Positions 4,991 to 62,000 of a stretch of 64,000 nucleotides of DNA are shown here, one piece after another. Within the stretch, counting starts at the first letter, position 1. Every line of letters starts with the position of its first letter. Both the position numbers and the translations under genes were made by a program. Source of the stretch: a virus (Duplodnaviria > Caudoviricetes). Location: positions 32,001 to 96,000 of the IMG/VR virus record IMGVR_UViG_3300021399_000008; one strand, 5' to 3'. Below the pieces are notes generated by a model. That model worked only from the letters and a program-made list of their open reading frames with translations, searched no databases and was not told the DNA's origin.

Positions 4991-5185
4991 ATGAATATAT
5001 TTCAGGCTATAGCTAAGCTCACAAAAGAACCTAAAGGAGCTTATGCTTGTAGATTCGGCAAACCATGGCGGCTGGAAACGGCCAATGACTAGCTCTTCGC
5101 TATATCCGAAGGCGGTATGCTCCATATGTGGTGTCCTACTGTCGAAGATCTTCAGGCAGAAGACTGGATGGTAGTGAGGTGTTAA
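4991..5185 (+). CDS. DUF2829/Tad2-like small protein with an in-frame TAG at 5090
   Basis: GGAGG RBS; MNIFQAI...ND*LF...WCPTVEDLQAEDW (W-x-P...D..A.DW motif); ends in TAA. Confidence 0.7.
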
Positions 5186-5186
5186 G

Positions 5187-6701: not shown

Positions 6702-6821
6702 GAACAGGAGATTAACTAGTAAATGGTAACTGTATTGACAGTAAATATGCAGCACGCACTGATCATTGGATTGATCGGATTTGTTGCTTACCTTCTTGCA
6801 GCCGACTATGAGGAATAAGAT

Positions 6822-7127
6822 ATGCCGACACAGCTAAGATGGGTCCAAAGACCACCAAACCATGAGATACTCGTATAGAGTACAGATGAACAGGGTGACA
6901 ACGTCCTCGCTGATATTACCTACAGAAACGAAAGTAAGACAGAGTGGGCGTTCACAACGGCTATTAAACAGATTCCTACGATCTCAGCCGACAGTGACGT
7001 AACAGACACGAAGCGGTGTATTATCTACGATCTGATTAAGTTTTTCCAGGAGAGAAAGCATCAGAACGAAGAGATACTTGAGCAGTTGGAATCTATTAAG
7101 CCGAAAGTAAAGGAAGACCTGGAGTAA
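6822..7127 (+). CDS. Hypothetical protein with an in-frame TAG at 6876 (missed by the standard-code ORF track)
   Basis: GAGG RBS; MPTQLRW...HEILV*STDEQG...KEDLE then TAA; 101 codons, followed by a terminator. Confidence 0.7.
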
Positions 7128-7145
7128 TCCGGGTCTTTTCTATAT

Positions 7146-7219
7146 GCCGAAGTGGCGCAACAGGCAGACGCAGCGGACTTAAAATCCGTAAGTTGTGGGT
7201 TCGAGTCCCATCTTCGGTA
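7146..7219 (+). tRNA. tRNA-Leu(UAA) with a short variable loop
   Basis: Acceptor GCCGAAG/CTTCGGT, A73; D arm TGGCGCAACAGGCAGACGC; anticodon TAA at 7180-7182; GTTCGAGTC T loop. Confidence 0.9.
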
Positions 7220-7312
7220 CTCGTCAGGAGGAGTCTTGGCGATAAGTTTAGAGGAAGGGTACAGGGCATACACCCTTCCTCTGTCTTTATCTTGTTTTGT
7301 CCAGCCGCTCTC

Positions 7313-7388
7313 GCGGGAGTGGCGAAATTGGCATACGCGGCGTACTCTAAATACGCTAACTTTGAGGGTTCGAGTCCCTTCTCCCGTA
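7313..7388 (+). tRNA. Amber-decoding tRNA (anticodon CUA) with a tRNA-Leu-type body
   Basis: Acceptor GCGGGAG/CTCCCGT, A73; Leu-type D arm TGGCGAAATTGGCATACGC; anticodon stem GCGTA/TACGC, loop CT-CTA-AA (7347-7349); T arm GAGGG-TTCGAGT-CCCTT. Confidence 0.92.
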
Positions 7389-8554: not shown

Positions 8555-8571
8555 AACTAAATAATTAAGAG

Positions 8572-8603: not shown

Positions 8604-8628
8604 ATTTATCTCTACCAGAGGTGTAACT

Positions 8629-8823
8629 ATGAAGTACAACGTAACGAGTATCGAGAACTACCTCGACAGACTGAACGAGGAAACAGAAGAAGATCAGCCT
8701 TTCTACAAAGACTAGTCTGCTGAGGAAGTAGAAAGGGAGGAGGTGGAAGATTGTTCGAAACCGTTCTTGAGTACTTCGACGACAGCGAGTGCCGGGTCTA
8801 CACGAACGAAAGGAAAACGATAA
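8629..8823 (+). CDS. Small acidic protein with an in-frame TAG at 8713
   Basis: GAGGTG RBS; FYKD*SAEEVERE; read-through would overlap the next ORF by 73 nt. Confidence 0.45.
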
Positions 8824-11002: not shown

Positions 11003-11012
11003 GGAGATTAAA

Positions 11013-12406: not shown

Positions 12407-12480
12407 GCTATCGTAACTCAGCAGGTTAGAGTGTCGGCCTTATAAGCCGCTGGTCGTGGGTTCGAATCCCACCGATAGTA
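12407..12480 (+). tRNA. tRNA-Ile(UAU)
   Basis: Acceptor GCTATCG/CGATAGT; anticodon loop CT-TAT-AA; T arm GTGGG-TTCGAAT-CCCAC. Confidence 0.85.
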
Positions 12481-18800: not shown

Positions 18801-21800
18801 ACCGACGAAGAGTGGCGCGATTGGGCTGAGAACTATCAGAAGAACTTTATCGACTCAGCTGATCCTGACCTTGTAATCACAATGGTTGACTGCCACATTT
18901 AAAGGAGATAAAGAATGGACAAAGGAGGATGAAACCTGATGGATCAGGAACGTCTTAATCAGCTGGATTCGTATATTGGTATTGCGAACAACGTAGGGTT
19001 CAAGACATTAGAAGTAGATGTCGATCTTCTAAATGAAGCTGTGACTGAGCTTAAGAATAAGGTTCCGAGTACGCCTACATTCTGGCAGGGTAAAGCCTAC
19101 TGCGGTAAATGCGACAGCAGGATTCCAAAGAAACAGGTAATGAAATCACATTACTGTGCGAGTTGTGGCTGGCCTATTCAGTGGCCGAGTAAGAAGCCTG
19201 ATTATGGAGTAGGAAGGGATGCATAAAATGACTGAACTGAACCGAGTGATCTACGATATCGAACGGTGCACCTGTCACGTCCCTGATGCTTGCCGTGACT
19301 GCTCGAAATACAAGGGAGAGTACACGCCTGACTGCATGGAACAGTTGCTGACTGATGCGCTGAAACTGCTGAAAGAACAGCCTGAAATCGTTCATTGTAA
19401 AAACTGTAAATGGTTTAGCGAAAAAGGATTCTGCAAACACCCTGACGGTGGAGCTGGAAACATTCGGCCTGCAGATTGGTTCTGCGGTGATGGGAAAAGG
19501 CGGGAAGTGGAATGAAAGAGATCATCATAGAAGTGCCTGACAGATTTGGACAAGAGCTGAAACCTGAAAAAGTAAACAGTAAGATCAAAGGGGAACTTGT
19601 CCGGTGCGGAGACTGTAAACATTATAAGGACGGATTTTGCTACAACCCTAACACTTTTGATGCTGAAAAAATATGCGGAAATACTTCGCCAGACTGGTTC
19701 TGCGCTGATGGGAAAAGGCGGGAAGTGGATTGACAAATAAAGATGCTATCAAATGGCTTGGCAACCTAAGAAATGATCTGGGAAATCCGCATTATGAATG
19801 CCTTTGGCCTTACGCACAGGCACTTGATGAAATTGCTGAGATGCTGGAAGAACAGGAAACAGAACCGCAGATGGTACTATTTAGAGACGATGGCGAGTAT
19901 TGTCCGCATTGTTCGACGATTACAAGCAGAGCAATGGGAGTACAAAAACTGCATCGTGGCACAAGGTTTTGTCCGTACTGCGGAAAGGCTGTGACGTGGA
20001 ATGGTTGACAGAGGGAAAGTTATTAAAGAACTCATAAGATGCGATATTCCATATCCGTTACTATGCGATACCATTGCCTTGCTAACAGAGCAGGAACCTG
20101 TGAAGCCGATCAGATTAGAAAACTGGTGGAAATGTCCATATTGCAGTGGGAACATAGTTGCTAACATGAATTATTGTCCGAGATGTGGAAGGGCTGTGAA
20201 TTGGAATGAGTAATAAAGGCAGAGTAAAACAGGGACTGACGTGCTGTCAGGTTAGTCATAAACTGTATTGCGACAAGTGTCCGTATAAATATAAATACTC
20301 AACAGGAATTCTCGACTGTACAGCTGATCTGGCTGCGGATGCTTTAGAACTGATAAGAGAATACGAGAAGTACAGGTGGCAACCAGCAGAACAAAAGCCG
20401 AAAGAACCTGGGTGGTACTGGGTGTATGCTCCTACTTATCAAGGTGGATCGTCAACCTCTCGTGAACACCACGACGGAATCATGTTCGCGAAATGGAGCG
20501 GTACAGCCTGGAGTATAGAACGTGGCTACTACAACAGACCTGGCTGTGTGGAAGCATGGATGTTTCTTCCTAAGTCGCCAGTGAAGGAGAATATTAGATG
20601 AGCGAATGGATCAGCGTTAAGGACCAGATGCCATCAGATAATCAGATGGTAATCGGTTATACACCAGTTGATGGTCGTATGTTCGTAGGATTCTATAGAA
20701 CATTCCACTATTCACACATAGACAAACCTTTGGGTTATTGGTACATCGGGACGGCTATGCGATCCACAAAGCGTATGACAAAAAAAGTAACGCACTGGAT
20801 GTCATTGCCTAGTTCACCAAAGGAGGAGAACTAAGATAATGACCGATAAAGATCTTCTGAATGAGGATATGAAGAACAGGATCATAGAAGCTGCGCATAA
20901 AGCGATCAGCATGAGCCGTGAAGATTCAGATTGTGTTGATCGCACAGAAGTAGAAACCGAGGTTCTTCTTGGATTGTTGAAGATAGTAAGTATGCAGGAT
21001 GAGAACTCAGATGAATGGATCAGCGTTAAGGACCATCTTCCTCCGAGCCAGAAACATGTTCTGGCTGAGACAGACAAGTATGAATGCGTAGCCTTCTACG
21101 CTGAAAGATTCTCTGTCTCAGTCGGATACTATACTGACGATGAGATTGATTGTGAATACAACGAAGACTTGGACGAATACTTTCTGGCCGAAGGATGGTA
21201 CGAGGTTGTCCATAACTGGGAAGAATATTCAAGTATTACGATTGAAGACGAAGTGATTGGCTGGATGGATTTGCCACGAAGATCGAAGGAGTAAGTATGA
21301 TCTACTGGGATTACACGCTTAACTGGAAATATATCGTCGACAAAATGGAAGAGAAGTTTGGACTTAAACCAGACTCTACAGAGAAGCTTTCTATGGGTGA
21401 GATTGAGAGGAAGATCGAAGAGATCTGGGTAGAATATGTAGATATTTTGGATAAGAAATACACAGAAGCTGAGATTGTAGATTCTCTGGACAAGGAGATA
21501 GTGTGATGAATTCGCCATTGACCGCTGAAGAAGTAGACAAGGTAGCAAGACAGTACCTGTGGAAACGGCACTGGCTGGAGAGAAACACAGGCGAATAGTA
21601 TATTATCTAGATGGACATGATTGCTTATTCCAGCAGAGGTAAGAATCTGATCTATCGCTTTACAGATCCTGAGCTGAGTACCTTCAGTCAGGAATTTTTT
21701 ATGTGTCTGTTTTCAGAATACGGAGAGACATGGAGACTGTGGGATAACGAACCTACAGAAGAAGAAAGGAAAACTGCTGAGTGGAAGACAGCTTAAAGAT

Positions 21801-34862: not shown

Positions 34863-34877
34863 CGCACTCACCTGACC

Positions 34878-39581: not shown

Positions 39582-39598
39582 AAAATAACCTCCACCTT

Positions 39599-42500: not shown

Positions 42501-43319
42501 GTCTGGTTACCTCTGACCGTTCCTCTCGCGTTTCTTTTATAGGTGATTATAGCGCAAGTTCAGACTGTTGCACCCCGGGTTTATCCGGGCCATTTCGCTC
42601 AGTCGTTGTTGGCAACGTGTGGAAAGAATTCAACAATAAAACCACTGCATGTTTCCGCAAGAATGAGATCTGCCTTTGAGCGTTCTCACGATATTGCAGT
42701 GGTTTAATCCGGTTTGTCTTTCTGCTTCACCGATTGAATCATAGTAGTTTACTTGACCTTCTTTATCTACGGAACATATCCTCATAGAAGTTGACGCGCA
42801 ACATTCATTCGTTTTAGCTGCCCGTTTCGTTCTTGTTCCATAGTTATGATTGTAGTCATTTGTACACCACTCAAGATTTGAGACATAATTGTTTGTCTTG
42901 ATCTCGTCTTTGTGATTCACTTGCGGTAAACTATCAGGATTCGGAATGAAAGCATCCGCAACTAATCTATGCACAGCGAACCATTTACTTTCGCAATGTC
43001 CGCTATAAAGTAAAACGGAAAGGTAACCTTTGGCTGTCAGATGGCCAGTGGTTATCTTTCCGATGTTTTTATTTTGTGCGTAACTTTTTAATCTTCCGCA
43101 GTTGCTGATTTCATATCTGCCTTCATAACCTTTTATAGGTTTCCAAATTTCGTCCAATATTTAATCACCTCTCAAATTAATCTTTCACACGTTTTCCAAG
43201 GCGTTGTCCGTCACCATCGGAGTTTCGCCGTATATCAGAAATGGTTTTTACTTGGCACTAACCTCAATGCCAAGGGCCGTATCAAAGTCATACGGCTAGA
43301 ACACAACTTTTTTCTTCAT
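39599..43319 (-). CDS. CotH-kinase-like C-terminal half plus LRR and DUF6273 tail protein; spliced (exon 1 43319-43267, exon 2 42443-39599); TAGs at 43296, 42344 and 39734
   Basis: [21 protein letters not shown] after splicing; ESV*WRN; FW*RTS...VIVGFCL then TGA, paralleling the C-terminus of the adjacent gene. Confidence 0.8.
42444..43266 (-). ncRNA. Group I intron (823 nt) carrying a homing endonuclease
   Basis: P1 CTTGGCAU/GTGCCAAG with a U-G pair; GTTA can pair with the exon 2 TAAC (P10); GACTG/CAGTC P7-like pairing; terminal G. Confidence 0.9.
42630..43157 (-). CDS. NUMOD4-HNH homing endonuclease (intron-encoded)
   Basis: [41 protein letters not shown] and a C-terminal NUMOD1-like segment. 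Confidence 0.92.
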
Positions 43320-46968: not shown

Positions 46969-47556
46969 TTAATACGCGAAGAGGGTACTGCTTATTGTGA
47001 CAGTACCTTTCTTGTCGCTTTCTACGTAGATCTTCGATTCTTCTATCGCGTCATGAAGTTCTTTCTTCGTCGCAAGCAGTTGGATCTGTTCCTGCATATC
47101 AGCGACGTCTTCCTTCGCCTGGTCGATATCGTCCATAGCGGCATTCAGCTTATCCAGTTCGACGTTAAACGCAGCAGCAAGAGAGTTGTAGGAGGAAGTC
47201 TCTTCTTCTGTATAATAAGTCGTAGTAGGCTGAGCTCTGGGGATTACAGGAATCTTTATCGTATACACCGTATAGCCTGAACTGCCTACGGATTTGTAGA
47301 GATAGCAGAAGATTGGCTTGCCTAAGGAAAGTAAAGCGTCAGGAATCTTCAGAAGAAGAACGTTTCCTGACTGAAGTGAGCCTCCAACATTCAGTGACGT
47401 GTTCACATCTGCGCAGGAGAAGTGGCCCTGCTAAACTGAATTCGGAGCGTTAAACACTCTGAGAGTAATACCATGGTCCCACTGATAGAGCGGTGAAGAT
47501 GTAATGGTATAGATATCGTTTCCAAACCTCACAGAGAGTGTGTTATTTTTTACCAT
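46969..47556 (-). CDS. Baseplate/tail-associated protein (YQWD family) with an in-frame TAG at 47431
   Basis: LYQWDHG...NSV*QGHFS...IPDALL...PRAQP; only the read-through version matches its paralog over the full length. Confidence 0.75.
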
Positions 47557-47572: not shown

Positions 47573-50500
47573 TTATGTCCAAATTAAAATACAGATATAG
47601 TTTATGAGCATACCCGGATCTTCTCGAACCGTAAGCGTTAACACGTTATTGTTCTCCCAGTACGGAAACACAAACACAGAGTTGTTGTTCGGTATCACAT
47701 ACACTCTGGCTAAATCATATCCGAAAGCTGGAGGAGAAATTGTCACCTCTGAAGACGTGCCAGAGAACTCCGTTAATCTTATCTGCATAATCTTGTCTCC
47801 TGGAAGTTTTATACCGCTGGCGAACAGATCCTCGAACAGACCAGTCGCGATAGTCGGAAGAAGTTCAGACAAATAGTTAGGCGAAAGCTTACTCAAGCGC
47901 AGAGTACCGTCAGCGATTCTTTCTCCAGACATTTCACCATAGTTAATTTCTCTGGCGTTAAAGCCATTACCGCTTCCGAATTCGCGCCATATCCAGTTGC
48001 CAGATAGGTCCTTGGAGTTTGCGATCCTGAAGACCCCGCTGTTCATAGACATAGCGGACATCCCGTCGGGAGAAGACCAGACGTCGTTTCCTTTTCCGTC
48101 TGTGAACTTTGTAGATGTGCCGTTTGTAATCCCGGTCATAGATGAATCGATACTGCCGCCGATATCAGACGCGCTAATCTGGCCGTTGTTGTTTATTGTC
48201 TTAGACCTGTCGTAGATCGAGAGCTTTCCTTTAGCCTCAGAAGCTACCTCGGCTATATGAGCCATTACGTCTTTGAACTCATGCTGATTCAGAAGAGAAA
48301 GGTTTGTGTTGATCTCGATGTTTGACCGCCACGGATTGTCGTAGCAGATAGAACTCTTATCGATATATGCCCACAGATTCAGGGAGATCTCAGGGTCAAT
48401 AAGATGAGCTGCGTATTCAGTAGTGATTCTCGGCCAGTCCTGTTTATCTGAAAGCTGAGAAGCGTAATACAGCATATCTCTGTTTGAGCCATAAGGATCT
48501 ATATACTGGATCTGGTACGAAGCCTCAGGTTTCGAGATCTTCTGGATCGCGTACAGAGCATCAGCGTAGAGTTTGTCCTCGTCGCCGTCTACATAGTTTG
48601 TCTTCGAGAGGTAGCCTTCTCTGTACAGCTCACCCAGTGCCACTTTCATGTTTGTTTCAAGAGAGTCGTACTTATCCTGAGCAGTCTTCATAGCCTGGTA
48701 CTTTCCGATATAAGCCCTGTCTGATGTATAGCGGAACTTGTTCATCATAGGAATCAGACCGTGTACTTCACTCGGCTTCACATGGAAACTGTTAATCAGA
48801 TAAGCGAGCTCGTTCTCGATAACAACTGCGTTCTCGTAATGGTACGGAACTAAAGATTTGTGATTATACACAACGTCATCGAGTTTGGCGTAGAGTCTGA
48901 AATAGAAAGCTCCTTCTGGAGTTGTGAACCCACCTGGATCGTAGTTGTCTATTCGGATCTGAACTCTTGATCTTCCGTAGAACGCAACACGACCTACACG
49001 GCTCCACGGCACTGACCACCTGTACTGTGTGTTTGACAGACATCTTATATAGTTCGACACGCCCCATGTACTATCTGTTGTCGAAGTGACTACGCCGTTT
49101 ATATCCATCTGGTAATATTGTTTAAATCCCATATCGGCGCAGTCTGTAATCGTAGAAGCTACATACTGGGGTCCAGAGACAACAGAGCTTTTTACGTAGC
49201 TTTTAATCTCAAGAGTTGTCTGAACATCTCCGTTATACTGAGTTACGTATCTCTTTGTTGTATTCAGAACAAGTCTTCCGTTATTCGCGTAAAGATTCTC
49301 CGCAGTAGAGAATACATGAAGGTTTCCGTCTCCGATATCCATAGCGAATCTGGAAGGGAGAAACACATTAGAGTTCGAGGTGTCTTTATATTTTCCGAGG
49401 TTATCCAGATCGCTCAAATGGCAGTCATAGTTCTCATAAACACCCGTGTAATAAAGGTCACGCTTATTGCAGCCTTCAATTACGATACCCATATTGTCGG
49501 CTATACGAGCCTCTTCAGTTTTCTGGTATTCGTACTTTTTCCAGACGTCGCCGCCAGTTCCAGATGTATACTGGACTCTGGCCACTGTCCCATCGTATTC
49601 TCTGTAATGGTATTCATACTGAAGGTTCTGAGTCTGAATCTCTTCGTTAAATACCCAGACCTGATCTGTGTTTTTATATTCCTGAACAACGAATACAGGA
49701 TACCATCTCGTGTCTCCGATTGTTTTGTTACAGAAGTACAGCTGCCCGTAGTTCTCAGGGCTGAACACATAACACCAGGCGTAACCATTAATCGAACTGA
49801 TTGAAGGTCTCTTACTCGGACTGTCAACGAAATATACTGGGTGCTTCGTAGTTACAAACGTAGTGACTTCGTCCAGAGTCATTACGGCTGACTCGTCAGA
49901 AGATTCAAATGAGCCGATATACCCGTTTACGTTATTTGTTTTAAACAGGTAACCTACGAGGTTTGTGTTCGTATCTGACCGTTTATCTGAACCGAAGTAA
50001 TAGTCAGAGGACTTCAGCCAGAGAGTAATTACTTTCGGGTTTTCTATATCGTCGACTTCCTTAATGTAGGTTTTATGCCACAGGAAGTCTTTTGATGAAT
50101 TAAACATATTCGAGCCGCCGTACTTTGTCCGTTCAGTAGCCCAGGCACCGCCGCCATATTCTCTCTTATCGATATAGTAGCTGGTAGTAACGTCCCCTTC
50201 AAGAGATAGTTCGAGACTCATATCGAACAGGTAGAGAACGGAAGCTTCCGGGTTTATAGCGTCTCCGTTAGCGAACAGAGCAGTAGCTGGCTTCCACCTG
50301 AATCTCTTCTCAGGCTTTACGTTAAACTCAGTCGTATATGCTACGTTCTCATATCCAGCTGTATCGAGCGTAATCTTCACATAAGATCCACTTGTATTTA
50401 CTGTGAAAGGCTGGAGCTTAACGTAGTCTACAGATCCAACAAGTTCCGATACCTTCGTTAATTCCTGAGTAAAGGCCAGAGACTTCTCCTGAATTTCCTC

Positions 50501-51919
50501 AAGGAGTTTCGGTCCCTGTCTCTGAAAGTTCGCGATAGCCTGAATTGCGTCGTCAGTTAATAACCCTACCTCGTCGTAATAGTTAAAGTCCATTACGAAT
50601 GAGAACCAGTTCCGTACATCTGTATTGGAGATATAGGTAACTGTAGGATAGCTGAGGTTAGGAGCTGACGGTTCGTCATAGACACGGTAGGCCATATCGA
50701 CTTCATAGTTATAGTCGGGGTTCAGAGGATCTGTTCCAGGGTCCGAAAGATCAGGGTCTTCAGGAACGAGTTCGCCGTCGTCTTCGCTGACGAGATCATC
50801 GTCACCGCCAGAAGAACTGGAAGAACCTGAAGAGCTAGAAGAACCAGACGAGCCGGAGGAAGAACTTCCGCTCGAACCAGAACCTTCTACGTACAGAACC
50901 GTATCGTCGTAGACATACATCATAGACGCAGGATCCAGTTGAGAGAAGGTAAACGTGTGCTGACTCGTAATCTGACCAAGAGGAGCTTCAGTCGGTTTAA
51001 AGTACTTCGTAACGACAATACCCTGTGCGTTCGTATACTGGAACCTGATCTCAGTTTCTGGGGCTACTGAGCTGTTAATCCTGAACTTCAGTTCCTTATG
51101 GGTACATTCGTCGATTCCGCAGTATCCGTTCGTCTTATCGCCGTAAGCTCCATAGGCATACAGCTTTGTTCTAAGATTCTCTGTGTTCAGAGTGCGGGTA
51201 ATATTCTTTACATTATTTCCATAGTGGAGTTCGATTACACCTTTAGCCGTCGTAACGTCTGGAACAGTTCCGTCCTTCGGTTCAGAGAAAGGATTCATCG
51301 GGACAATATCTACCGTCTTCGAATCTCCTCTGAAGATAGGTTTCGCATCAAACAACTCACACATCTTAGAAATCAAAGAGAAGGCCCCGGTCTTCTCAGA
51401 GGCTACGAGTGAACGGTACTTAACAGTTACACCGTCGTCCTCATAGAACTTCGAGACAACACCTTTCGTCCAGCCAGTACCTTCGAGGATCACGTCCAGG
51501 AAAGTATCTGGGGTTCCGACGTTATTGCCTTCGTCGTCTGAGAATACAAGACCGAGGTTCTTATACTTCAGCTGCTGCGAAACATGTCCGCATATAGCTG
51601 TCACTGTTCTGGATTTGTTTGAGTGCGTAATCTTAGGTTCAGAGATTATGTACCATTCAGTCTCGTCTTCGTTAATCAGTCTGACTTTATAGTCAGCCTT
51701 CATAAACTGAAGACGAGGATTCTCTTCCTTACCGTTCTCTGTCTCGATAACTGTCGGGAGAGTAAATGACTATTCTCGCCAGCCGTTACGGGAAGTAGAC
51801 TCAGTAATACCAGAAGCCTGACCTGAGACATCGCTGTTTGAATCATAAAGGTTACAGATCTTATTGCCGGAGTAGTCGAATATATCGATGATACATAATC
51901 GTTTATAATTTATCGCCAT
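47573..51919 (-). CDS. Tail tip/Tal-like (prophage endopeptidase tail) protein with an in-frame TAG at 51770
   Basis: GAGG RBS; NGWRE*SFTLP; YGNNVKNITRT..TKLYAYG; WREFGSGNGF; downstream of Dit. Confidence 0.8.
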
Positions 51920-51930: not shown

Positions 51931-53028
51931 TTAATAGAATGTGGGTTTGTACACAAAATTTAATCTGGTTATGCTCATCTTTGTAACAGGACGGATCGAG
52001 AGTTCATTCATTCTGAAGATAACGGCCATACCTTTAAGATCAGCTGATAGGGAAGTGCCTACCGTGATCTTATTTGTATTTGTGTTAACTGCGGTAATCT
52101 TATATCTCGTTCCTCCTGACTGTGCGCAGATATACTGACCAATCATATCTTCTGAGAGTATCTGGTTATTTACAGATAAGTTATTAGAGTTTTTCGCGCC
52201 ATTTACGAAGACATTTCGGTAACAGGGAAATGCCGGGGAGAGCTGGATAAAGCCGAAATCGTGGTATAAAAACCCATAAGTTACTGTAGAACCGTTAGTA
52301 ACGAACGTCTTACCGTTAAGTCCGTCGCACACAATCCACTTTCCGACATTCGTAGTATTCGACTTCGTCCCGCCGATAAACTTCATCTGCTGGCCAGTAG
52401 TAAGGTTGTCTATAATAACTCCTGTTCCAAAGTCTCCTGCGATCTCAACAGCTACATCTGCCCTGGCTGAGCCTGGGTTAAAGAGCTGGAAGGTTTTCTC
52501 GGCAGTAACAGGAGAGGAGCTTGTAGCGAAAGAAGTAGGAAGGTTCCACGAACTTCCTGCCATCATGGCTGAGTTCAGATAGATATCCTTACTGTCAGGA
52601 TCTGTCGCTTCGATATACATTTTGTCACACCGTGCGAAAGGGTAGTAACAGCGGACTGTCATACTCTAGAGACCGTTCTGAGGATTAGGCAGCATCTGAA
52701 TAGTAGGAGGAGTAATCACTGTTGCCATATAGTAGTTCCACGGTCTGCGTGAGAAAATAAGTTTCGCTGTTTTACCCGGAGCAAATATCTGGTGGAGTCG
52801 GGCCATAAAGCCGTCCTTCACGTTCTGTCTTTCGAATACACAACGGAGATTGAAATCCTTCGGCTGAAAGGTAAAGCCGTAGTAGTAGCCGCCTTCGTGT
52901 CCGTCAAACTTCTGCTCGTGCATAATCGCCTGAGCAGGACCCCAGACATAGACGTCAGCGTTCTCAGGCACATATGTTAATCCAAGAGAGGCGATATCAA
53001 TCCCGTCAAAAGTAAAGCCGCCTTTCAT
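51931..53028 (-). CDS. Distal tail protein (Dit) with an in-frame TAG at 52666
   Basis: MKGGFTFDGI...LIFSRRPWNYY...NGL*SMTVRCYYPFA; follows the tape measure. Confidence 0.8.
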
Positions 53029-53048
53029 ACAATCACCTCTGACAAAAG

Positions 53049-53088
53049 AATACCCCTGTACTCCTTGTTGAGTGGAGTACAGGGGGAG
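53049..53088 (-). terminator. Hairpin or terminator after the tape measure gene
   Basis: CCCCTGTACTCC...GGAGTACAGGGG. Confidence 0.6.
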
Positions 53089-53095
53089 TGTCTGT

Positions 53096-56000
53096 TTAAA
53101 TGTTAGAGACACTGAGACCATATCTGGAGATCTCTTTCACAAGAGCGTTACCGACGTTCCTGGCTACGGTTTCGTAGTCGTCGTCAGTGTTAATCTCTGC
53201 TTCATTTATCTCAATATGGATGTCTCCGATTGTGACATTCGATTCCGAACCTAAACCAGATATAGCTGCGTTCGTAAGAAGTCTGGGGAGGCTGATGTAC
53301 TTAGCCATCTCCATCATCTTCGCGAGGTCTGCGTCCATATCTGTACTGTTCAGGGTCGAAAGAAGATCCCGTGTTTTCGCGATCCTGTCAGCGAAGTAGT
53401 CGACTCTGGCTGTGCCGGGAGCATCGATAAAGTCGTCGAGAGATTTCGTAGCGTAAGCGTCGAGAATCATCTCGGGATCAGCAGGAGTACCGTCGACACG
53501 GATAGCACCCATCCGACTTCTGACCATTTCGGTAGAAGGGATGTAACCACCTTTAGCCATAGCAGTGTGAGTTACGGAAGCAGGACCCATATAGCCAGTC
53601 TTCTGGATAACTCTCTGATTGGCATACATCTCGTAGAGTCTGTCGTACCATTCAGAGTCTATGATGTGAACGTCATTATTGTTCGCATACAGACGACGTT
53701 TCCTCAGTTTAGCCTCGTTATATTCAACTGGACCGTAAACAGCCTGATTCGTTTTGTTATCCCAGAGGTAGTAATACATCTTAGAAGGAGCCGTCTGAGT
53801 CTTCGGATTAGGATAAGTTCTCCTCGTCTGAGTTTGAGTCTTAGGTTTCTGTTCATCCTCGCCAGGCCCAGGTCCGTTGTATGGGATATAATTATCTTCA
53901 ACAGGCTGATCGTATGTCGTATCGTCGCCATTACCAGTGCTGTACGTTCCATAGTTACCGCTGTTGTCATCGTAGTGCGTATAAGACGCATCATCCTTCT
54001 GACCTTTCAGCCAGCGGTCATACATCTGGGACCACTCATACTCGTACATCTGTTTCTGATATTCAGAAGCATTCTTGTACGTATCAGTGTTCCTCATGTA
54101 GTTCATGAACGTATCGTTACTGGTAAGGATACTGGCAACCTCTGTCCAGTACGTATCTGTGATACCCTTCATCTGTTTGTAGGTATCTTCCCAGCTGCGA
54201 AGCATCTGGTGTTGCGAATCCTCAAGACTCGTAATGTATTCATCGACGTTATTCTTGAGCCACTCAAACAGTTCTTCCTGAGACAGAGCCATAACCTCGT
54301 TTACTTCTTCCGCGAAGTTCTGCTCGTTTGAAAGCATCTCCTGCATATACTCGTCGCCATAAGTAATACGATCTTCATATCCCTGGATCTGGTCTTCAAG
54401 AGAAGCCTTCTGAGCAGCTGCCTGTTCGTCCGCGATATCCCACGCGATTTCCTTTTCGAGAGCCGCGATCTTTTCACGGAGAGCTGCCGCATCTTTGGTA
54501 CGGGTAGAGTCCATAGAGATAGAGGCATACTGCCGCTGAAGTTCTGCGAGTTCTTCGTACTTATTGGCTTCATCCTCTGCGTTCTTTCTGCGCTGGAGTC
54601 GCTCATCGATAAGCTTTGACTCATCGGCTAAAGCCTGCTTCTTCTTATCGAGGTCGCGTTTAATCAGATCCCACTCGTTCTGGTAGCGTTTCTTTATCGC
54701 TTCGAGAACGGTCTTCTCCATTTGAACGGTAGCATCAGCCATATCCCGTTCTTTCTGTTTCTGGGCTCTGATCTCTTGGTCAACAAGATTCTCAAGGTCA
54801 ACACGAAGCTTAATAATAGCCTGTCTGTTTTCCTTGATTTTCCTGTTATTCGCAGCGATAGCGTTATTCGCAGATTCGATAGCTTCTTCATAATTAAGGA
54901 TTGTTTGATAGAGATTGAACCAGTCATCTGTACCCTGCTGAGTTACAGCCAGCTGAGCTCTGAGCTGATAAATCATTCCTTCAAGAGAAGCTTTCGTTCT
55001 CTCCTGGGCCTGGTTCTCCAGTTCAAGCATACGGTTATAGTTCGTAATCTCTTCCTGAGTTTCATAGTACTGTTCCTGACTCTGGATCATCTTGATCTCG
55101 TGGTCAAGAAGTTCCTTCTGTCTCTTTATAGATTCAAGAAGTTTCTGAGCGGCTGTCTTTTCCTTCTTCTGAGAAGTAGGTTTATTGTAAGTATACTGCT
55201 GGTTCTTCTTACCGCCGCCGAGCTGACTCTTGGATTTGTATATAGAAGTTGTCTGTTGGTTATTATTCTTTTTGTTTTTCTCAGTAACAAGTTGCGTCTT
55301 AATGTTTCCGTTCTTGTCCGTAGAGATATCCAGTACAAGACTGCCGACAACTCCTTCGTTTTCTGCCAGCTTATCGAGAATTTTCTGCTTGTATTGATCG
55401 CAGAATTCCTGAAGGTCAGTAAGGTCGATTGTTCCGTCTGCGTTAACGTGCGCTTGGATCCATTCAGCAAGTTCAAGAGGTTTGTCTTTAAAGACATTCA
55501 TTAGTGCCTCTTCGAACATCAGCCTTGTAACTTCAGCGTACATTGCATATTTTTCCTGAGCATTCGCCATAGCGGCATCAATAATCTCTTCCAATCCAGC
55601 AGCATCTGCGGCTTTAATTCTCTCAATATCAACATTACTGAACTGAGAGATAGCTCCGAAGATCTCGTCGGCATGAGCCATCTTCGAAACTTGGGCTCCG
55701 CTCTTGCCTCTCACGTCATCCATAGCAATAATGAGATCTTTGATACGGGTCATATCGTCTCCCATATCCTCAATTGCTTTGTTTACTTCCGTTTCAGAAC
55801 CGTGCAGATTTGTAAACACGCTCACAATGGAATCAGCCATAGCGTTTCCTTGGACTTCTGCGCTAGCCCAGTCAGATATCATTTCCTGATAGAGTTCCTT
55901 TTGTTTATCAGCTGTGAATTCAGTCTCTCCTGCGAAGTCGCCCATCAGGCTGCTCATAGCTTTGAAAGAACCGTTGAGCTTTGTGATCATAGCATTCATA

Positions 56001-59000
56001 GCCGGATCAGACATAGCCTTCTGGAATCGTTCAGCGTTGTCAGCATCATCTGGATTGAAGATACCCTGACTGAGCTGAGACATAATATCAGACCCGAAGA
56101 TAGAGTTCATCGTATCTACGCCTCTGCCAAGCATAAAGTTTTCTCCGCTGATGCTGGACGCAGCTGCCGCAGCGAGATCGTCATTGTTCACATACTGAGA
56201 TCCCTTAGAGAGAGCTTCAAGAATAGCGGAAACCATAGAGTCGCTACCTGCTAAACTCTGCACTCCTTCCTATGTCATGCCTTTTTCCTGAAGGAGTCCC
56301 ATAGCATCGTTGTAAGTTCCTGTACTCTTGAATGCCTCAATAAGGTCGAACATCGAAGTAAGAGTTGTATCTCTGTTTGCTTGATTCGTGATATAGTCAT
56401 TAGCAACCTGATCTGCAAGCGAAACGGGAGTGTACGTGGAAACACCAGCTTCATCGTAGATCGCGTACCTTCTGCGATTCTGATCTAATACACCAGCTTC
56501 TCCCTCGGATCCGGCTTCAAGCCTTGGAGGCGGGATCATATCACCGTTATAGTCAACATTGTGCCTTACACCAAAACTATAGTCGCCAGTTCCAGCTAAA
56601 CTCGTAGCCATAAGACCTAGAGTGGGATCGTTAATCAATCCAGATGTAACCATCTCCTGGATCATCTCAGGAGTGATAATCAGTTTCCCATTGCTCGCAT
56701 ACTGGCTGGCAATCCTGTTATAAAGAGTAGGATCGGTTTCAAGATCGGCAAGGAACCGCTCACGCATTGTAGCGCCGCCGTAGTTGAGGAATGAATCATC
56801 TGCTGATTGATTAAGCAGGTTCAGAAGGTATCCAATTCCTTCGGCGTCCATCTTCCTGATTTGGTCTACATCGACATTAGATTTAGACGCAAGGAAGTCG
56901 GCTTCTGCTTTAGTTAACTCTTCGCCACTCTTACCTTCGGCTGAATGTGTGATGTCGCGAATCTTCTCGACATTAGCCATCTCGGTCATGTAATCGCCGA
57001 GAGCTGTAATAGCTTCAGCCGCAGAACCAGAGAGTCCTTTGAGCGTCTCGGAAACTTTATCTATAGACTCGTTGAATTCGTTAGCTCCTTTAACACCGTC
57101 GAGAATGAAAGCATTAGCGAGCTTCTTGACTTCATCTGTAGAAAGATTGAGACCTTTGCGTACCTTTTCGAGGATGGGTTCAAGTTCAGGGAAAGCTTTC
57201 TTTAAAGCTTCGAGCTGACCAGCCCCGCCTTCTTCAAGATTGAATGCGTTCAGACTAGACTGTCTGTTCTGTTTCCCGAACAAAGAGTTATCGACATTTC
57301 CTGTTATCATCTGGCTGAGCCAATTGTTCCCGAATATCTTAGAAAGCCAAACGTTGTAATCGTTGTTCCCGTACTGGTTCGTTCCAAGAACGGCTGAGTT
57401 AAAAGCTTTAACCAGTTCGTCGACAGTCACGCTCTTATCTCCGTTGCTGGCAGCAGCAAGGAGATTGGAGAACCCTGTATTCTCTTCCAGGAACTTAGTA
57501 GCTAACTCGTTGTTGCTGAAGTATTTTTGGAAGTACTCAACAATAGCGTCAGTTGTTTTGAGCATTCCGCTATTCATGACGCCGAACATACCTTGCGTCA
57601 TTTTTGTTGTCCTGTTGGTCTCATCCATTGCCTGTTCTCTTGATGTGAATACGTTATCAAGAAGTGATTTACCTTCTCCGAGCGTAATGTCGCCTTCGAG
57701 CTTGATAGTGTCTGGCTTGATTACGATATTACCGTTTTCCAAAGCAGTCACGAAAGAGAAATTCCCAGAGTAACCGCGAGCTTGTGCTTCGGCAATTATA
57801 TTCTGCAGATACTGGTTTCCTGTTGCGCCGGCAAATTGGCTGGCTTGATCAAAAGACATAGTCCCAGTCTTTGCGAAGTTAAGCGAAGTAAGAGTATCCC
57901 AGTTCATCAATGAACTCAGATCGGCAATAGTCATCGTATCTTTTTTAATAGCTTGCTTTATTGAAACTTTAAGACTTTCGGCTATTACCTTGCCTACGTT
58001 ACTATTAGCTCCAGAAGAAGCCTCGTCCGCGATTCCTGTGAATATCAGTTCAATAACATCAGCGCCGAGTTCTTTAATCTGAGCTTCTTTCATTCCAGTG
58101 ATTTCTTCGATAAGAGCAAGCCCGTCTGAATCAAGAGCAGAACCAGAACGCCCACGGTTACGAGTGACTATCGAGTTCATATCGGCGTACTTCTGAATAT
58201 TTCCAAAGACTTCACCCATAGCTGAGAGCTTAGCCTTTGTTGAACTGGAAGTTAGATTCGAAATCGACTCAACAACTTCTTGAATGTGCTGATTGTATTT
58301 GTCAACCGATGTTATACCTTCGGAAATAAAAGCTTGAGCTAAGGCTAACTGCTGTTCTTTTGTGACGGTTTCACCAGCAGAAAGAGTGTTGAGTACTTCG
58401 GTTAACCCTGAATATTTACTTTCAAGCTGCCCTATAAAATCAAGTATACCCTGATCTTCTGTAGTGCCAAGATAGAAACGTCCTGTATAAGTGCCGCTAA
58501 GCATCTCGCTTAACCAGTCCTGGCCAAGTAACTCGTCCATCATCCTGGAATATTGCTCATGGCTAAATGAGTTACGCCCTGTGGCTGCATCATTCAGTTG
58601 ACGTCTAAAATCGTCAAAGCTGAAGAAGGAACTGCCACTCTGCAGAGAATACCACATGTTGAGAAGCGTAGGATTTTGAGAGAGAATAGAAGGTAAATTA
58701 TCCACAACTTCTCCGTATTCGCTTGTTAACCCAGAATTGAAAGAATTGATGTCTGAATAATGTTTAGCTATATTATAGAATTCAAACAACGTGTCAGTAA
58801 AAAGAGGGCTTTCAGCGGACTTATTTAAAACAAGACCTTCTACGGTTTTGCTTGGGTCGTAATACACCTGCTGATTATTTTTATTTTTTATATCGTAAGC
58901 AGAGATCCCATTCGTTCTTGCGTAGTTTAAAGCAGCTTCCTGCGTTTCAAAACCCATCCCGCCAACGTTAAACGCATACGCTGAAGCATCGGCCTGTCCT

Positions 59001-62000
59001 TGCAGCATAGCAGCACGAGTAGCCGGATCCGCATACCTTAATTGAAGAGCGAAAGTACGCGGCGTATTATACATCTAGTCTGGCAAGTTATCGTAAGATA
59101 CGCCTTCTCTAAAATGCCCGTTCTCGTCCCAGATAGCATTTCTTGTGAGGTTTGTCAGTGCGCTGGTTACTACGTCTTTATCTCCAGGAGTGTATGTCGC
59201 AACAACGCCTACAGCTTCCTGTATAAGTTCATCGACAAAGTTTTTCTCAAGAGTAGCCCAGTTATCCTGAAGCTTACTTCTGTGCGTACCCGACACAAAA
59301 TCAGTTCCAAATGAATCCAATAAGTAACCAAACAGGTTACCTATAGCATCATCGGAATTTGCTCCACGGAAAGACTTAAGCCCGTTGTCTAAATCGTCGA
59401 TAAACATTTCAGCCATCGATTTGTCGCCTGACACATACGGGGACATGTTCAGTCCAGAAGGCGCTAATTGCAACACTTCATTTAAAGAAGTCTTAACTTG
59501 GGATATATAAGATTCTCTATCTGGAGAGCCTTCGAGGAAGTTTTTGTTTTTAAAGTTAAGCAGAATGTTGCCTAACTTTTTCGCGTCTTCCAAATTGTAC
59601 CCAACAGAACCTTCAGGAATTAAACCTAATGAAGAGTTAAGTATTCCGAATTGAGGGCCATAGTACGATTCGTTTGCTGCATTCTTAAATACTTCTACGC
59701 TCGAGTATGTGCGGGACTTCTTTAAATCATTTAGTTTGTGACTATACTCCATCCCGAAGTTACTCATAGCCCACTCGTCGGCAAGAGCTAATGCTGTGTC
59801 ACTTGTAGCCTTATCGAAATCACCTGCTGATTTCTTTGCTTCGGAAACAATCTTTCGCCATCTCTCAAGAGTGTTTGTTGTAGTGTCGAGATTCTTGTTG
59901 AGTGACGGGAGAGCCGTAGTTAAATCTTTGATATTTTGTTCAAGCTCTTTAGTTTCCTTGGCTGATAACTTGGAACTACCAGAGAAGTCCTTGTATTTAT
60001 TGGCTAAAACATCAGATTCTTTCAGGTACTTTCGAATGGTATCAGATTGCTGATTCCTATTATTTACGTAGGTGTTCAGCTCAGAGATCTTAGTACTAGA
60101 CTCCGCAGCTCTAGATGAAGATGAGCCAGACGGGATAGCGCTTCCAAGTAATCCAGCTCCAGCAACAACAGCGCCACCAGCAAGAAGGCCAAGCAAAGTA
60201 CTAAGAGGACTAGATACGCTATGAACTACAGCCATAGCAACGCCGAGAGCAACGACAGCAGTGGTTATTGCTCCGATTGTTCCAATAGCTTTACCACCAA
60301 GAGTAAGTACGTTTTTCAAACCGTTCAGAATAGTTGTTCCTATTTCAATTACGCCAGTTAATACACCATCGTCTTCAAGAGCCAACACAAAACTGTCAAA
60401 CGTAGATCTGAGTTCCTTCAGCCTTGCGTTAATTGACTCGATCATAATCTCATACTTGCTCTGCGTGATACCAGAACTGTTCCCAGATAAGCCGAGGTAT
60501 TTAGCAAATGTCTCTCCGTTATCTTCCGACAATCCTTCCATAAGCGTATTAAACATGTTAGCGCTTCTGGTTTGTGCAAGATTAGAAGTAACAGCTGCCT
60601 TCTGGACATCAGTCATCGAATTCCACTTCTGAGCTACTTCAAGAAGGATTTCGCTGGCAGATTTAAACTCGTCCATACCCGCGCCTTTACGCATCTCAAT
60701 ACCAGCAATCTTCAGAGCTTTTTCTACGTTATTCAGCGTAGTCGTTTCTCCGTTAATCTCCTTAGAGTAACCACTCATGGTAACATTTCTCATTCGGGAG
60801 AAGATAGTATTAAGAGCTGTACCGACCTGCTGACCACTGAGCTGTGTCATAGAGGTCATGACAGTAATCATTGAGTTGAGCTCGTTGTAAGACACGCCAG
60901 CAACTTTAGCTGAAGCCGCACACTTCTGCATAGCTTTCGAGATTTCCTCTGCTGTTGTAGCAGCGGAGTCGCCGAGCGCTACGAGTGCGTCCATAGCCTC
61001 TTCAGCGCTTCCGACAAGATTATTCCTTAAGGCAGTTGTAATAATCTTAGTTGCTGTTGTAGTCTTAATCTGAGCAACAGTTGCGAATTTAACTATAGCA
61101 TCAGTCTGAGAATCGACTTCAGCGTCAGAAAGACCTTGACGATAAAGCGCCGAAGTAACATCAGCCACCTCTGATGTAGAAGCTCTAAGGTTAATTGCTT
61201 TATTAACCACACCAGTACGAATACTCTGCATCTCTGCATTTGTTTTCATGGTGATTGCCTGGATCTCAGTCATCGAAGCGTTGTATTCCATCACAAAGCG
61301 TTTCGCTTCGTTAATAGCTTGTTGAAATAAACGTCTTCCGAACTGCTGAGTTAAACGGCTAACTCCAGCAATAACAGTATTAAGACCAGCGGAAAGTTCA
61401 GCATGTGTACCAGTAAGCTTATCAATAGCTGCTTCATTTTCTTCTATTGCTTTTGTGTATTTCTTGATATCGATCTGAGCTTGCTCGTATCGCTCATCTG
61501 TCGCTGAAATACCTTGGAGTCCGATAACCTTCTCATTAAGACCTGCGTTTATCTGCTCCAGTTGTTTAGCCTGGGCTTCGTATCGATCAAGCGATTGTCC
61601 GTATAAACCAGTACGGCCAGCTGTTTTGCCGAATCCTAATTTGCGAAGATCGGCATATTTCTCAAGCTCAGAATCTACTTGCCTGTCGTGCTCAGTGCTG
61701 AGTAATTTCGCATATTGCTCCGAATCTAGTTTATCTATAGCGGATTTCTTCGTAGTATACTCGTCTTTCGAAATGCCGCCTGCTTTGTATAACTTCTCAA
61801 GATCTTCGTACTGTTTGTTAACGCTGTCTTTGAAGTTCTTAATAGCCTGTCCGTACTTATGTAACGGGACGTCTGTGCCGTTCTGTTTCGCAAATAGATC
61901 AGAGGTTGTTTCATCGAGAGATTCTGCATACTCTTTATAGAACTGCTCCCTCTTCTCTTTCATTTCCTTTTCTTTTTCGACGGCTTTCAGGTAAGCAGCT

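Follow-up and report, generated by a model that had tools for sequence, protein, structure and literature searches.

Gene content of the window

The window analysed here, a stretch of 64,000 nucleotides, belongs to a siphophage that is probably temperate. The phage genome is complete at 116 kb and very probably uses TAG as a rare leucine codon. The TAG-bearing genes of the window, a pair of tRNA genes and an insert in a fibre gene are listed below.

4976–5185, plus strand: small early ORF with TAG 5090; SD sequence and ATG upstream
6822–7127, plus strand: 101-codon ORF with TAG 6876 (codon 19), directly 5' of the tRNA pair
7146–7219, plus strand: paralogous short-arm tRNA-Leu(UAA), 93 nt upstream of the candidate suppressor
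7313–7388, plus strand: putative amber-reading phage tRNA, anticodon CUA (ARAGORN; Rfam tRNA, 50.9 bits)
8629–8823, plus strand: 64-codon putative ORF with TAG 8713
21503–21796, plus strand: 97-codon putative ORF with TAGs 21596 and 21608
30362–31633, plus strand: tyrosine integrase with TAG 30389 (Pfam Phage_integrase)
32281–32769, minus strand: SocA/Panacea-domain protein with TAG 32641 at residue 43 (Pfam PF13274)
33442–33936, minus strand: 164-codon lysis-region protein with TAG 33724 (phrog_1009)
33960–34871, minus strand: NlpC/P60 and SH3 endolysin with TAGs 34743 and 34557 (Pfam)
39599–42443, minus strand: fibre gene exon 2 (LRR_5/DUF6273, tail-fibre-like) with TAGs 42344 and 39734
42444–43266, minus strand: 823-nt group-I-intron-like intervening sequence splitting the fibre gene
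43267–43319, minus strand: fibre gene exon 1 with TAG 43296
43350–46349, minus strand: 999-codon tail protein with TAG 46290 (codon 20); SD sequence and ATG upstream
46969–47556, minus strand: 195-codon tail protein with TAG 47431 (phrog_16164)
47573–51919, minus strand: Tal-like tail protein with TAG 51770 at residue 50 (Pfam YOMG_N, Prophage_tail)
51931–53121, minus strand: Dit (Sipho_tail) with TAG 52666 at residue 152; 29 relatives align across the TAG
53096–64000, continuing past the window, minus strand: giant tape-measure-type gene of 4,802 codons

The tape-measure gene encodes PhageMin_Tail and PD-(D/E)XK domains and carries six TAGs, at 56270, 59075 and four positions outside the window, with no TAA or TGA in any of its 4,802 codons.

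The 823-nt insert in the fibre gene looks like an intron. It contains an ORF for an HNH/NUMOD4 I-HmuI-like homing endonuclease (42630–43157; Pfam matches to NUMOD4, HNH_3 and I-HmuI_NUMOD-like), U is the last base of exon 1 and G the last base of the insert, and uninterrupted fibre homologues read ...LPYDFDTAIGINNEG... over the exon junction. A search of the insert against Rfam gave no match. An 18-letter peptide quoted in an earlier, sequence-only reading of this DNA is obtained once the insert is removed, and is not contiguous in the DNA itself. The label 'CotH-like' given there to the fibre protein is not supported, as there is no Pfam CotH match and the homologues carry LRR_5 and DUF6273.

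TAG alone interrupts reading frames

In-frame TAGs were counted across the whole genome in a set of 138 genes scored by codon usage. Late genes, on the minus strand, contain 30 (in 18 of 40 genes) and the early genes on the plus strand 14 (in 11 of 98). Neither TAA nor TGA interrupts any of the 138 genes. TAG lies near enough to the gene end to act as a terminator in three genes at most; among standard-code relatives, about 9% of long ORFs end in TAG. The TAG-bearing genes encode lysis, tail, head and packaging functions and a few replication proteins, and about 2.5% of the Leu codons of late genes are TAG. The in-frame TAGs are skewed towards the 5' ends of genes (median relative position 0.22; KS p = 0.0017), a skew that the choice of start codons could slightly inflate.

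All 19 positions listed in the sequence-only reading are TAG (CTA on the minus strand), in frame and inside frames free of TAA and TGA. Its further claim, that the genes continue through these codons, is borne out by homologue alignments or family profiles at 13 of the 19 sites (32641, 34557, 34743, 39734, 42344, 43296, 51770, 52666, 5090, 33724, 47431, 56270 and 59075). At 5090, 33724 and 47431 the evidence is a profile match rather than an alignment: phrog_1048 (residues 26–68) spans TAG 5090 at residue 39, phrog_1009 (12–107) spans TAG 33724 at residue 71, and phrog_16164 (9–130) spans TAG 47431 at residue 42. The TAG at 33724 is kept in one relative (L004) and that at 47431 in three. In the fibre gene, homologues extend beyond TAG 39734.

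Homologue coverage is lacking at the other six sites (6876, 8713, 21596, 21608, 30389 and 46290), each of which has an SD-preceded start upstream of the TAG. The ORF at 6822–7127 has one such start and no alternative, and family searches with it gave no match. TAG 46290 is kept in two relatives (L001 and L003). It is uncertain whether TAG 30389 lies inside the real integrase: counted from the first SD-preceded ATG it is codon 10, and profile matches begin at residue 86. In TerL, portal and Tal, the TAGs near the N terminus are within the coding region: each is preceded by a strong SD sequence and start, and no other start follows it.

Near-identical contigs from four other assemblies (91–97% nucleotide identity) have TAG at every covered site, which shows that the codons are not assembly errors. 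The TAGs are thus real, conserved and internal.

A Leu-like tRNA with a CUA anticodon

The tRNA(CUA) is Leu-like in sequence. Its scaffold is that of a short-variable-arm tRNA-Leu, with a 3-bp D stem, an 11-nt D loop containing GG, G1–U72 and A73 but not the long variable arm that bacterial tRNA-Leu usually has. Identity is 76% with the adjacent tRNA-Leu(UAA), 64–69% with tRNA-Leu genes of relatives and 49–57% with tRNA-Ser. Its best matches in phage databases are annotated as tRNA-Leu, at 80% identity over the full length, with Vibrio phage Thalassa at the top; similar short tRNA-Leu genes thus exist in cultured phages. The neighbouring tRNA-Leu(UAA) is likely the duplication partner of tRNA(CUA) and the decoder of TTA codons, in which late genes are enriched (176, against 101 in early genes).

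No release factor gene, including RF2, and no class Ia synthetase gene was found in the phage genome, which means that host enzymes must be used. The host leucyl-tRNA synthetase (LeuRS) may well charge such a short-arm tRNA, as work on E. coli and the short tRNA-Leu genes of cultured phages suggest.

TAG sites behave like leucine positions

Leu dominates many of the homologue columns at the TAG sites. Examples are SocA TAG 32641 (L 144, I 5 in 149 homologues), the capsid-like protein (L in 49 of 49), fibre TAG 43296 (L 97, E 3, I 1, M 1 in 102 homologue N-termini), fibre TAG 42344 at residue 33 (L 93, M 8, V 7, I 4, F 3; n=115) and Tal TAG 51770 (L 25, I 4, F 1; n=30). Leu also leads at fibre TAG 39734, residue 903 (28 of 34), at TerL residue 106 (L 96, I 23) and in the endolysin at TAG 34557 (L 92 of 120, M 20, I 5, F 2) and TAG 34743 (L 48, Y 41).

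The sequence-only reading had placed the TAGs at Leu or hydrophobic positions, as holds for most columns; four sites are polar or small in distant homologues, namely portal-33 (E/D), g111946-20 (P/A/K) and g104004-49 (A) among the scored sites and TerL-20 (E/K), which lies outside the 18 scored. Its Dit example does not lie in a Leu column: the residues at TAG 52666 are I 15, V 13 and L 1 in 29 relatives. Other hydrophobic columns without Leu in the lead are g106587 (V), g111946-124 (M) and MTP, dominated by I/V/M.

Tabulating the aligned residues, as that reading had proposed, gave Leu as the best assignment. In a Naive-Bayes classification of 18 TAG sites, with 6,660 positions of the same alignments as reference, L was followed by I (−6.1 log units), M (−6.3), V (−9.3), Q (−26.6), K (−27.3) and S (−31.5). 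The Leu margin of +6.1 compares with a median of 5.9 when 18 true Leu positions are drawn at random (5–95%: 2.4 to 9.5); the ranges obtained for Ile, Met, Val, Gln and Ser do not include it. The TAG positions therefore behave like Leu positions.

The sister phage L162 is about 75% identical (protein identity 54–81%) and has one TAG in common with our phage. Of 12 TAG sites of our phage, 9 hold a Leu codon in L162 (TTA, CTG, CTC or CTT), among them sites with I, V, A, M or Y in distant homologues; the probability of at least 9 Leu out of 12 by chance is 4e-8. None of the sites has CAA or CAG in L162.

Related lineages served as controls. In those with TAGs at Leu columns (31 sites), L scored best and Q −64, and one of these lineages carries a Leu-type tRNA(CUA). 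In those with TAGs at Ser columns (19 sites), S scored best, and two of these lineages carry a Ser-type tRNA(CUA), 79–87% identical to a tRNA-Ser(UGA).

Leucine and its alternatives

Because of the homologue columns, the L162 Leu codons at 9 of 12 sites and the Leu-type tRNA(CUA), TAG most likely stands for Leu and not Gln in this phage, as the sequence-only reading had held; the assignment draws on homologue alignments and the tRNA sequence.

TAG might instead be read as Ile, Met or Val, or in a mixed fashion (e.g. Leu with Gln or Lys), with the short-arm tRNA charged by more than one synthetase. Such a reading would fit the columns in which I, V or M prevails (Dit, g106587, MTP, g111946-124) and the small likelihood gap, about 6 log units, that separates Leu from Ile or Met, and the weak 1–72 pair together with U35 could permit some mischarging by GlnRS or LysRS. 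We nevertheless consider it improbable: the Leu margin matches that of true Leu positions, L162 has Leu at most of those I/V/M/A columns, and a CUA tRNA should be a poor substrate for IleRS, MetRS and ValRS because these enzymes depend on their anticodons.

Under code 15, as in crAss-like, Lak, Garnet and Topaz phages, TAG would be glutamine. The searchable literature describes no other TAG reassignment in phages, public gene callers have already applied it to the endolysin of a close relative (P0001, translated only 'with_TAG=Q'), and tRNA(CUA) has the C34, U35 and weak G1–U72 pair that favour GlnRS mischarging of amber suppressors. Yet this reading has very little probability left. The homologue columns hold almost no Gln, the one Q in each endolysin column comes from P0001 and is a TAG translated as Q, and the Gln model is 26.6 log units worse than Leu. 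L162 never has a Gln codon where our phage has TAG, and A73, the Leu-type D arm and clustering with tRNA-Leu genes all set the tRNA apart.

The TAGs at 59075, 56270 and 52666 sit just before ATG or GTG and could pass as gene ends, but there is next to no chance that the TAGs are genuine stops, whether gene boundaries, pseudogenes or sequencing or assembly errors. Besides the TAG-only interruptions, the conservation in four assemblies, the alignments across the sites and the cognate tRNA, the tape-measure locus (56270, 59075) is an unbroken frame in 27 standard-code relatives, wholly stop-free up to the locus start in all 27; in 25 its length is above 2,900 codons. For the 13 sites with homologue support, genuine stops are already refuted. 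Pyrrolysine, suggested by the CUA anticodon and ARAGORN's automatic 'tRNA-Pyl' label, can be dismissed almost entirely, since the tRNA's normal 11-nt D loop with GG, U8–G9 linker and standard T loop do not match the compact architecture of tRNA-Pyl, and the columns are Leu, not Lys-like (Lys −27.3).

Relation to known recoding systems

A precedent for the anticodon change is supP (Su6) of Escherichia coli, an amber suppressor in which the anticodon of a tRNA-Leu is changed from CAA to CUA. LeuRS ignores the anticodon, so a Leu-inserting amber suppressor needs one anticodon base change. Unlike supP, a laboratory or chromosomal suppressor of occasional nonsense mutations, the tRNA described here is virus-encoded, would serve 30–44 TAG codons and lacks the long variable arm.

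Code 15 phages (crAss-like, Lak, Garnet, Topaz, Agate; bioRxiv 10.1101/2021.08.26.457843; PMC9523058) likewise read TAG as sense, chiefly in their late, structural and lysis genes, encode their own tRNA(CUA) and keep early genes nearly free of the recoded codon. They differ in the amino acid, Gln there and most likely Leu here, in that our tRNA(CUA) is built on a tRNA-Leu scaffold, and in that our phage has no RF2 or synthetase gene. Only TAG→Gln and TGA→Trp were seen in phages whose code differs from that of the host (Borges et al., bioRxiv 10.1101/2021.08.26.457843). The searchable literature contains no report of TAG=Leu in phages, in keeping with the earlier impression that it is undescribed; the accompanying statement that stop-recoded phages use TAG=Gln or TGA=Trp holds there too, except that TGA→Gly has also been reported.

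TAG=Leu is known from NCBI tables 16 and 22 (chlorophycean mitochondria), chytrid mitochondria (PMC6131824) and some phyllopharyngean ciliates (PMC11687900). The codon assignment is identical, but these codes are genome-wide and belong to organelles or nuclei that have translation systems of their own, whereas here a virus would impose the reading on a presumably standard-code bacterial host.

The tRNA-Leu(UAG) of Vibrio phage Thalassa shares 80% identity over the whole tRNA and the compact architecture, but short-arm genes of this type read ordinary Leu codons, while ours has the amber anticodon CUA. TerL-family relatives (L029/L127, L016, L026/L134) share the virion module, the giant tape-measure gene and TAG-only recoding; they differ in the suppressor scaffold and some in the amino acid, reading TAG as Ser, or as Leu with a long-arm tRNA.

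A possible route to leucine at TAG

Probably, the neighbouring tRNA-Leu was duplicated and its anticodon changed to give tRNA(CUA); for a change from CAA to CUA, a single base would suffice. Host LeuRS, which does not read the anticodon, would then charge this tRNA with leucine, and ribosomes, competing with host release factor 1, would put in Leu at TAG. Genes across the genome avoid TAG as a terminator, and the codon is concentrated in lysis, tail, head and packaging genes. With TAGs in the late genes, full-length late proteins would have to await the phage tRNA, and the requirement for tRNA(CUA) may thus act as a translational gate on late genes.

TAG as an internal sense codon

The window belongs to one 116,328-bp contig (bases 32001–96000), the first ~127 bases of which reappear at its end; IMG/VR classes the record as complete, with direct terminal repeats. 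The whole genome has only three tRNA genes, all within the window and placed in the early/middle part of the plus strand. Pfam recognised no head or packaging protein, and names for these came from PHROGs.

Genome layout (window positions unless stated otherwise)
Plus strand: early and replication genes (RuvC-like, dUTPase, exonuclease, C5 methylase, tyrosine integrase)
Minus strand: lysis, tail, head and packaging genes
7146–7219: tRNA-Leu(UAA)
7313–7388: tRNA with anticodon CUA
12407–12480: tRNA-Ile(UAU)
53096–64000, continuing past the window to genome position 99504, minus strand: giant tape-measure-type gene, 4,802 codons, with PhageMin_Tail and PD-(D/E)XK nuclease domains

A C5 cytosine DNA methylase gene (36010–37167, plus strand) sits inside the minus-strand late region.

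All 19 in-frame TAGs reported by the sequence-only reading are present and in frame, and the frames that host them lack TAA and TGA. A census of 138 codon-usage-scored genes over the whole genome found 30 in-frame TAGs spread over 18 of the 40 late (minus-strand) genes, and a further 14 on the plus strand, where 11 of the 98 genes have them, corresponding to densities of 1.93 late versus 0.79 early per 1,000 codons. TAG is the sole interrupting stop, as TAA or TGA interrupts none of the 138. TAG is avoided as a terminator as well: at most three of the 138 have a TAG near enough to the end to act as terminator. Among the long ORFs of standard-code relatives, 9% terminate in TAG.

The TAGs are kept at all shared sites in four other assemblies, on contigs 91–97% identical at the DNA level. 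Where TAG lies near the N-terminus, among others in TerL, portal and Tal, the upstream DNA offers a start with a strong Shine-Dalgarno (SD) sequence, and downstream there is no usable start. Thirteen of the 19 sites are bridged by homologues or a family profile, the exceptions being 6876, 8713, 21596, 21608, 30389 and 46290. Two of the sites, 56270 and 59075, resemble gene borders, yet fall within the single 4,802-codon tape-measure-type frame, the first 1,168 residues of which gave no Pfam match. As a trait of the family, the same locus carries in 27 standard-code relatives a stop-free frame that extends as far as the retrieved DNA reaches and exceeds 2,900 codons in 25 of them, while the equivalent frame of two recoded relatives is interrupted by TAG alone.

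The phage combines the characters of recoded phages: internal TAGs of a single stop type, a matching tRNA(CUA) and late-gene enrichment. Greedy ORF coverage rose from 0.85 under code 11 to 0.90 with TAG as sense, but reading through other stops gave similar values, which makes this measure uninformative. The base 3′ of TAG is T in 2 of 30 cases, which is not significant. The integrase gene (30362–31633) has TAG as codon 10 if the first SD-preceded ATG is its start; recoded prophages are reported to keep recoded codons out of their integrases (Borges et al., bioRxiv 10.1101/2021.08.26.457843).

TAG sites align mostly with leucine

The amino acid was assessed by translating TAG as X and tabulating the homologue residues facing X, with sequences >85% identical left out.

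Residues facing TAG in homologue columns
32641, SocA/Panacea: L 144, I 5
34557, endolysin: L 92, M 20, I 5, F 2
34743, endolysin: L 48, Y 41
43296, fibre exon 1: L 97 of 102
42344, fibre: L 93, M 8, V 7, I 4, F 3
39734, fibre: L 28 of 34
51770, Tal: L 25, I 4, F 1
52666, Dit: I 15, V 13, L 1
Outside the window, capsid-like protein: L 49 of 49
Outside the window, TerL residue 106: L 96, I 23

At the remaining out-of-window sites the columns hold I/L/V, V/I, M or Y/L, and polar or small residues occur in the columns of four sites. A naive-Bayes classification of 18 TAG sites, with emission profiles trained on 6,660 ordinary positions from the same alignments, ranked Leu first, followed by Ile (−6.1 log units relative to Leu), Met (−6.3), Val (−9.3), Gln (−26.6) and Ser (−31.5). 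The margin of +6.1 is that of the median random set of 18 true Leu positions (5.9; 5–95% range 2.4 to 9.5) and lies far beyond the ranges of Ile, Met, Val, Gln and Ser positions. These columns therefore speak for TAG = Leu, as had been proposed from the sequence alone, since Leu scores best by a margin typical of true Leu positions.

A mixed decoding of TAG would be a less probable alternative to leucine alone. Code 15, in which TAG is read as Gln, fares poorly: Gln scores 26.6 log units below Leu and Q is nearly missing from the columns. One public sequence does show glutamine. P0001, the endolysin of a close relative (97% identical; locus L004, 1403–2305), has Q at both TAG sites because the database gene caller translated TAG as Q, and thus carries Gln at two positions where homologues carry Leu. 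Another public protein, P0242, begins downstream of the fibre TAG and is uninformative.

The leucine assignment is also favoured by a sister phage, the 16.6-kb contig L162, whose head and packaging proteins are 54–81% identical to those of our phage. At 12 comparable TAG sites L162 has standard Leu codons in nine (TTA, CTG, CTC, CTT) and Met, Ser and Ala in one each; a further TAG, at TerL residue 20, is common to both phages. Taking Leu as ~8% of codons, the probability of at least nine Leu in 12 is 4e-8. The nine include sites with I, V, A, M or Y in distant homologues, so that the apparently non-Leu columns are positions that turned Leu in this lineage. The exchange of TAG for Leu codons in so close a relative again points to TAG = Leu.

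A leucine-type tRNA(CUA)

With the Rfam tRNA model, the tRNA(CUA) gave 50.9 bits. As is typical of tRNA-Leu, its D stem has 3 bp and its D loop 11 nt (AAAUUGGCAUA); the discriminator is A73, the first pair is G1–U72, and the molecule has a short variable region. Its identity is 76% with the tRNA-Leu(UAA) located 93 nt upstream, 64–69% with the tRNA-Leu of related phages and 49–57% with their tRNA-Ser. Among 50,697 phage records its best matches are annotated as tRNA-Leu; the 77-nt tRNA-Leu(UAG) of Vibrio phage Thalassa is 80% identical over the full length. Our phage is distinguished from code 15 phages, where TAG = Gln, by TAGs on Leu columns together with a Leu-type tRNA.

An origin of the suppressor from tRNA-Gln, with G73 and a weak U1–A72 pair, is disfavoured by A73, the Leu-type D arm and the clustering with tRNA-Leu. 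A pyrrolysine tRNA is unlikely on tRNA structure and columns: the D and T loops are standard, the compact tRNA-Pyl architecture is missing and the Lys model scores −27.3 at the TAG sites.

Bacterial LeuRS recognises A73, the D-loop and the tertiary fold, not the anticodon or the long arm, and the E. coli amber suppressor supP, which inserts Leu, arose by a CAA-to-CUA change. Neither a release factor gene nor a class Ia synthetase gene was found in the whole genome, which implies that the tRNA(CUA) would be charged with leucine by the host LeuRS and would compete with host RF1.

Relatives of the gene adjoining the tRNAs were searched for and none was found, and a promoter/terminator scan around the tRNAs gave nothing above the shuffled expectation. 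GC-rich hairpins followed by T runs lie at 7110–7140, before tRNA-Leu(UAA), and at 7250–7292, between the two tRNAs; neither was flagged in the simple terminator scan. Upstream of the pair is a 101-codon ORF (6822–7127) with TAG at codon 19. Hairpins and TAG-bearing ORF may form a regulatory arrangement for suppressor expression.

TAG is a rare codon, accounting for 30 of some 1,216 Leu codons in late genes, and it tends to lie early in the gene (median relative position, 0.22; KS p = 0.0017). Without the phage tRNA(CUA), most late proteins would be truncated early, and TAG decoding would act as a translational gate on late and lysis genes. Such a gate has been proposed for code 15 phages (Borges et al., bioRxiv 10.1101/2021.08.26.457843), and we infer that the idea fits the TAG distribution seen here. 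The exonuclease gene (genome position 26077) and a small ORF (5090) are early genes with supported TAGs, and therefore the early/late partition is not absolute. Whole-genome codon counts also differ for TTA (late 176 versus early 101) and TTG (late 48 versus early 100), a shift that fits the phage tRNA-Leu(UAA) and possibly a replacement of TTG by TAG.

Recoded relatives and host

Relatives were fetched via TerL and Tal alignments (80 and 35 viral loci, respectively, at 42–58% identity). Within the aligned genes of these loci, 77 stops were TAG and two were TAA, both at poorly aligned spots. The recoded relatives are of two kinds, distinguished by column type. In loci L026/L023/L134, L068 and L076, TAG falls on invariant Leu columns; L is the top residue at 26 of 31 sites, and the best score is that of Leu (Ile −18, Gln −64). 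In L029/L084/L127, L016, L031 and L151 it falls on Ser columns, with Ser as the best-scoring residue across 19 sites (Ala −8.9, Gln −12.5). The loci L026/L134/L112 belong to IMGVR_UViG_3300029305_007380, and L029/L127/L105 to the complete, 107-kb IMGVR_UViG_3300021255_003500.

The tRNAs follow the same division. G001, the full record of a Leu-column phage, encodes a Leu-type tRNA(CUA) of 84 nt that has a long arm and A73. In the Ser-column records G002 and G005 the tRNA(CUA) genes measure 88–89 nt, have G73 and are 79–87% identical to the tRNA-Ser(UGA) of G002, which adjoins the tRNA(CUA) of that record. Column call and tRNA type agree in all three records permitting both checks, which supports the same reasoning for our phage. 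Judged by their sequences, L029/L127/L105, L016/L090, L031 and L151 represent phages of the same family with an apparent TAG = Ser code.

Its long arm sets the tRNA(CUA) scaffold of the Leu-column relative apart from the short-arm tRNA(CUA) of the window; the record with the 84-nt tRNA(CUA) also has a 74-nt short tRNA-Leu(CAA). A quick tree of TerL scattered the recoded lineages among standard-code relatives, with moderate support. Two other viral contigs contain an identical 84-nt Leu-type tRNA(CUA) (L160, 3078–3161; L161, 6981–7064), and their ORFs fuse once TAG is read through. They may be further TAG = Leu phages, outside the family of our phage.

A cultured-phage collection gave no matches to 24 kb of the DNA by megablast or to Dit by tblastn, and only five weak ones to the endolysin by tblastn. 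The binning of contigs with related TerL genes to Lachnospiraceae and Acutalibacteraceae MAGs, together with fibre homologues named from Blautia and Oscillospiraceae, suggests a host among the Clostridia.

A split fibre gene

The LRR_5/DUF6273 fibre gene with the TAGs 43296, 42344 and 39734 is split by an 823-nt insert.

Parts of the split fibre gene
43319–43267, minus strand: fibre exon 1
43266–42444, minus strand: insert, 823 nt, preceded by U, last base G
42630–43157, inside the insert: ORF for an HNH/NUMOD4 I-HmuI-like homing endonuclease
From 42442, minus strand: fibre exon 2, starting NNEGHL

The insert falls exactly between ...ALGI and NNEG..., and more than 100 unsplit homologues read ...LPYDFDTAIGINNEG... 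across the exon junction. The label CotH-like from the sequence-only reading found no support, Pfam giving no CotH match, and one peptide quoted there arises only when the 823-nt insert is taken out. By its sequence, the insert is a candidate group I intron, having the traits of an exact interruption, a U before the 5′ splice site, a 3′ G and a homing endonuclease ORF; an Rfam search of the insert (E ≤ 1) gave no match to a group I core. A second LRR_5/DUF6273 protein gene (38388–39608, minus strand) adjoins the split gene.

Discussion

In the openly accessible literature, recoding in phages is described as TAG-to-Gln, TGA-to-Trp or, in phages of code-25 hosts, TGA-to-Gly, and reports of UAG-to-Leu are limited to the mitochondria of green algae and chytrids and to some ciliates (PMC6131824, PMC11687900). 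The assignment in our phage would be the same as that of NCBI table 16 (TAG = Leu), and no report of a phage with TAG = Leu was found in that literature. Host GlnRS and TrpRS have been suggested as synthetases that phages can exploit (Borges et al., bioRxiv 10.1101/2021.08.26.457843).

We lean towards regarding this rumen/gut siphophage family (100–150 kb, with a giant tape measure) as a hotspot of repeated, independent capture of TAG by different amino acids. On this somewhat favoured reading, Leu was captured at least twice on different scaffolds (short-arm here, long-arm in L026/L134) and Ser at least once (L029, L016, L031), with the recoded lineages lying amid numerous standard-code relatives. 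Leu and Ser both belong to the amino acids with synthetases that do not read the anticodon, which suggests a general rule for the reassignments that viruses are able to force on a host with the standard code.

For annotation, gene callers that set TAG to Q would misassign the residue at every recoded position, of which P0001 is an example. The phage also provides natural amber suppressor tRNAs of a compact Leu type, which could be of interest for genetic-code expansion and for studies of how phages time the expression of late genes. A TAG = Leu phage with TAG = Ser relatives would make the range of viral codes wider than described, and synthetases that ignore the anticodon, LeuRS and SerRS, would offer another route to code change. 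If the hotspot reading is true, code 15 would be just one among several phage TAG codes.
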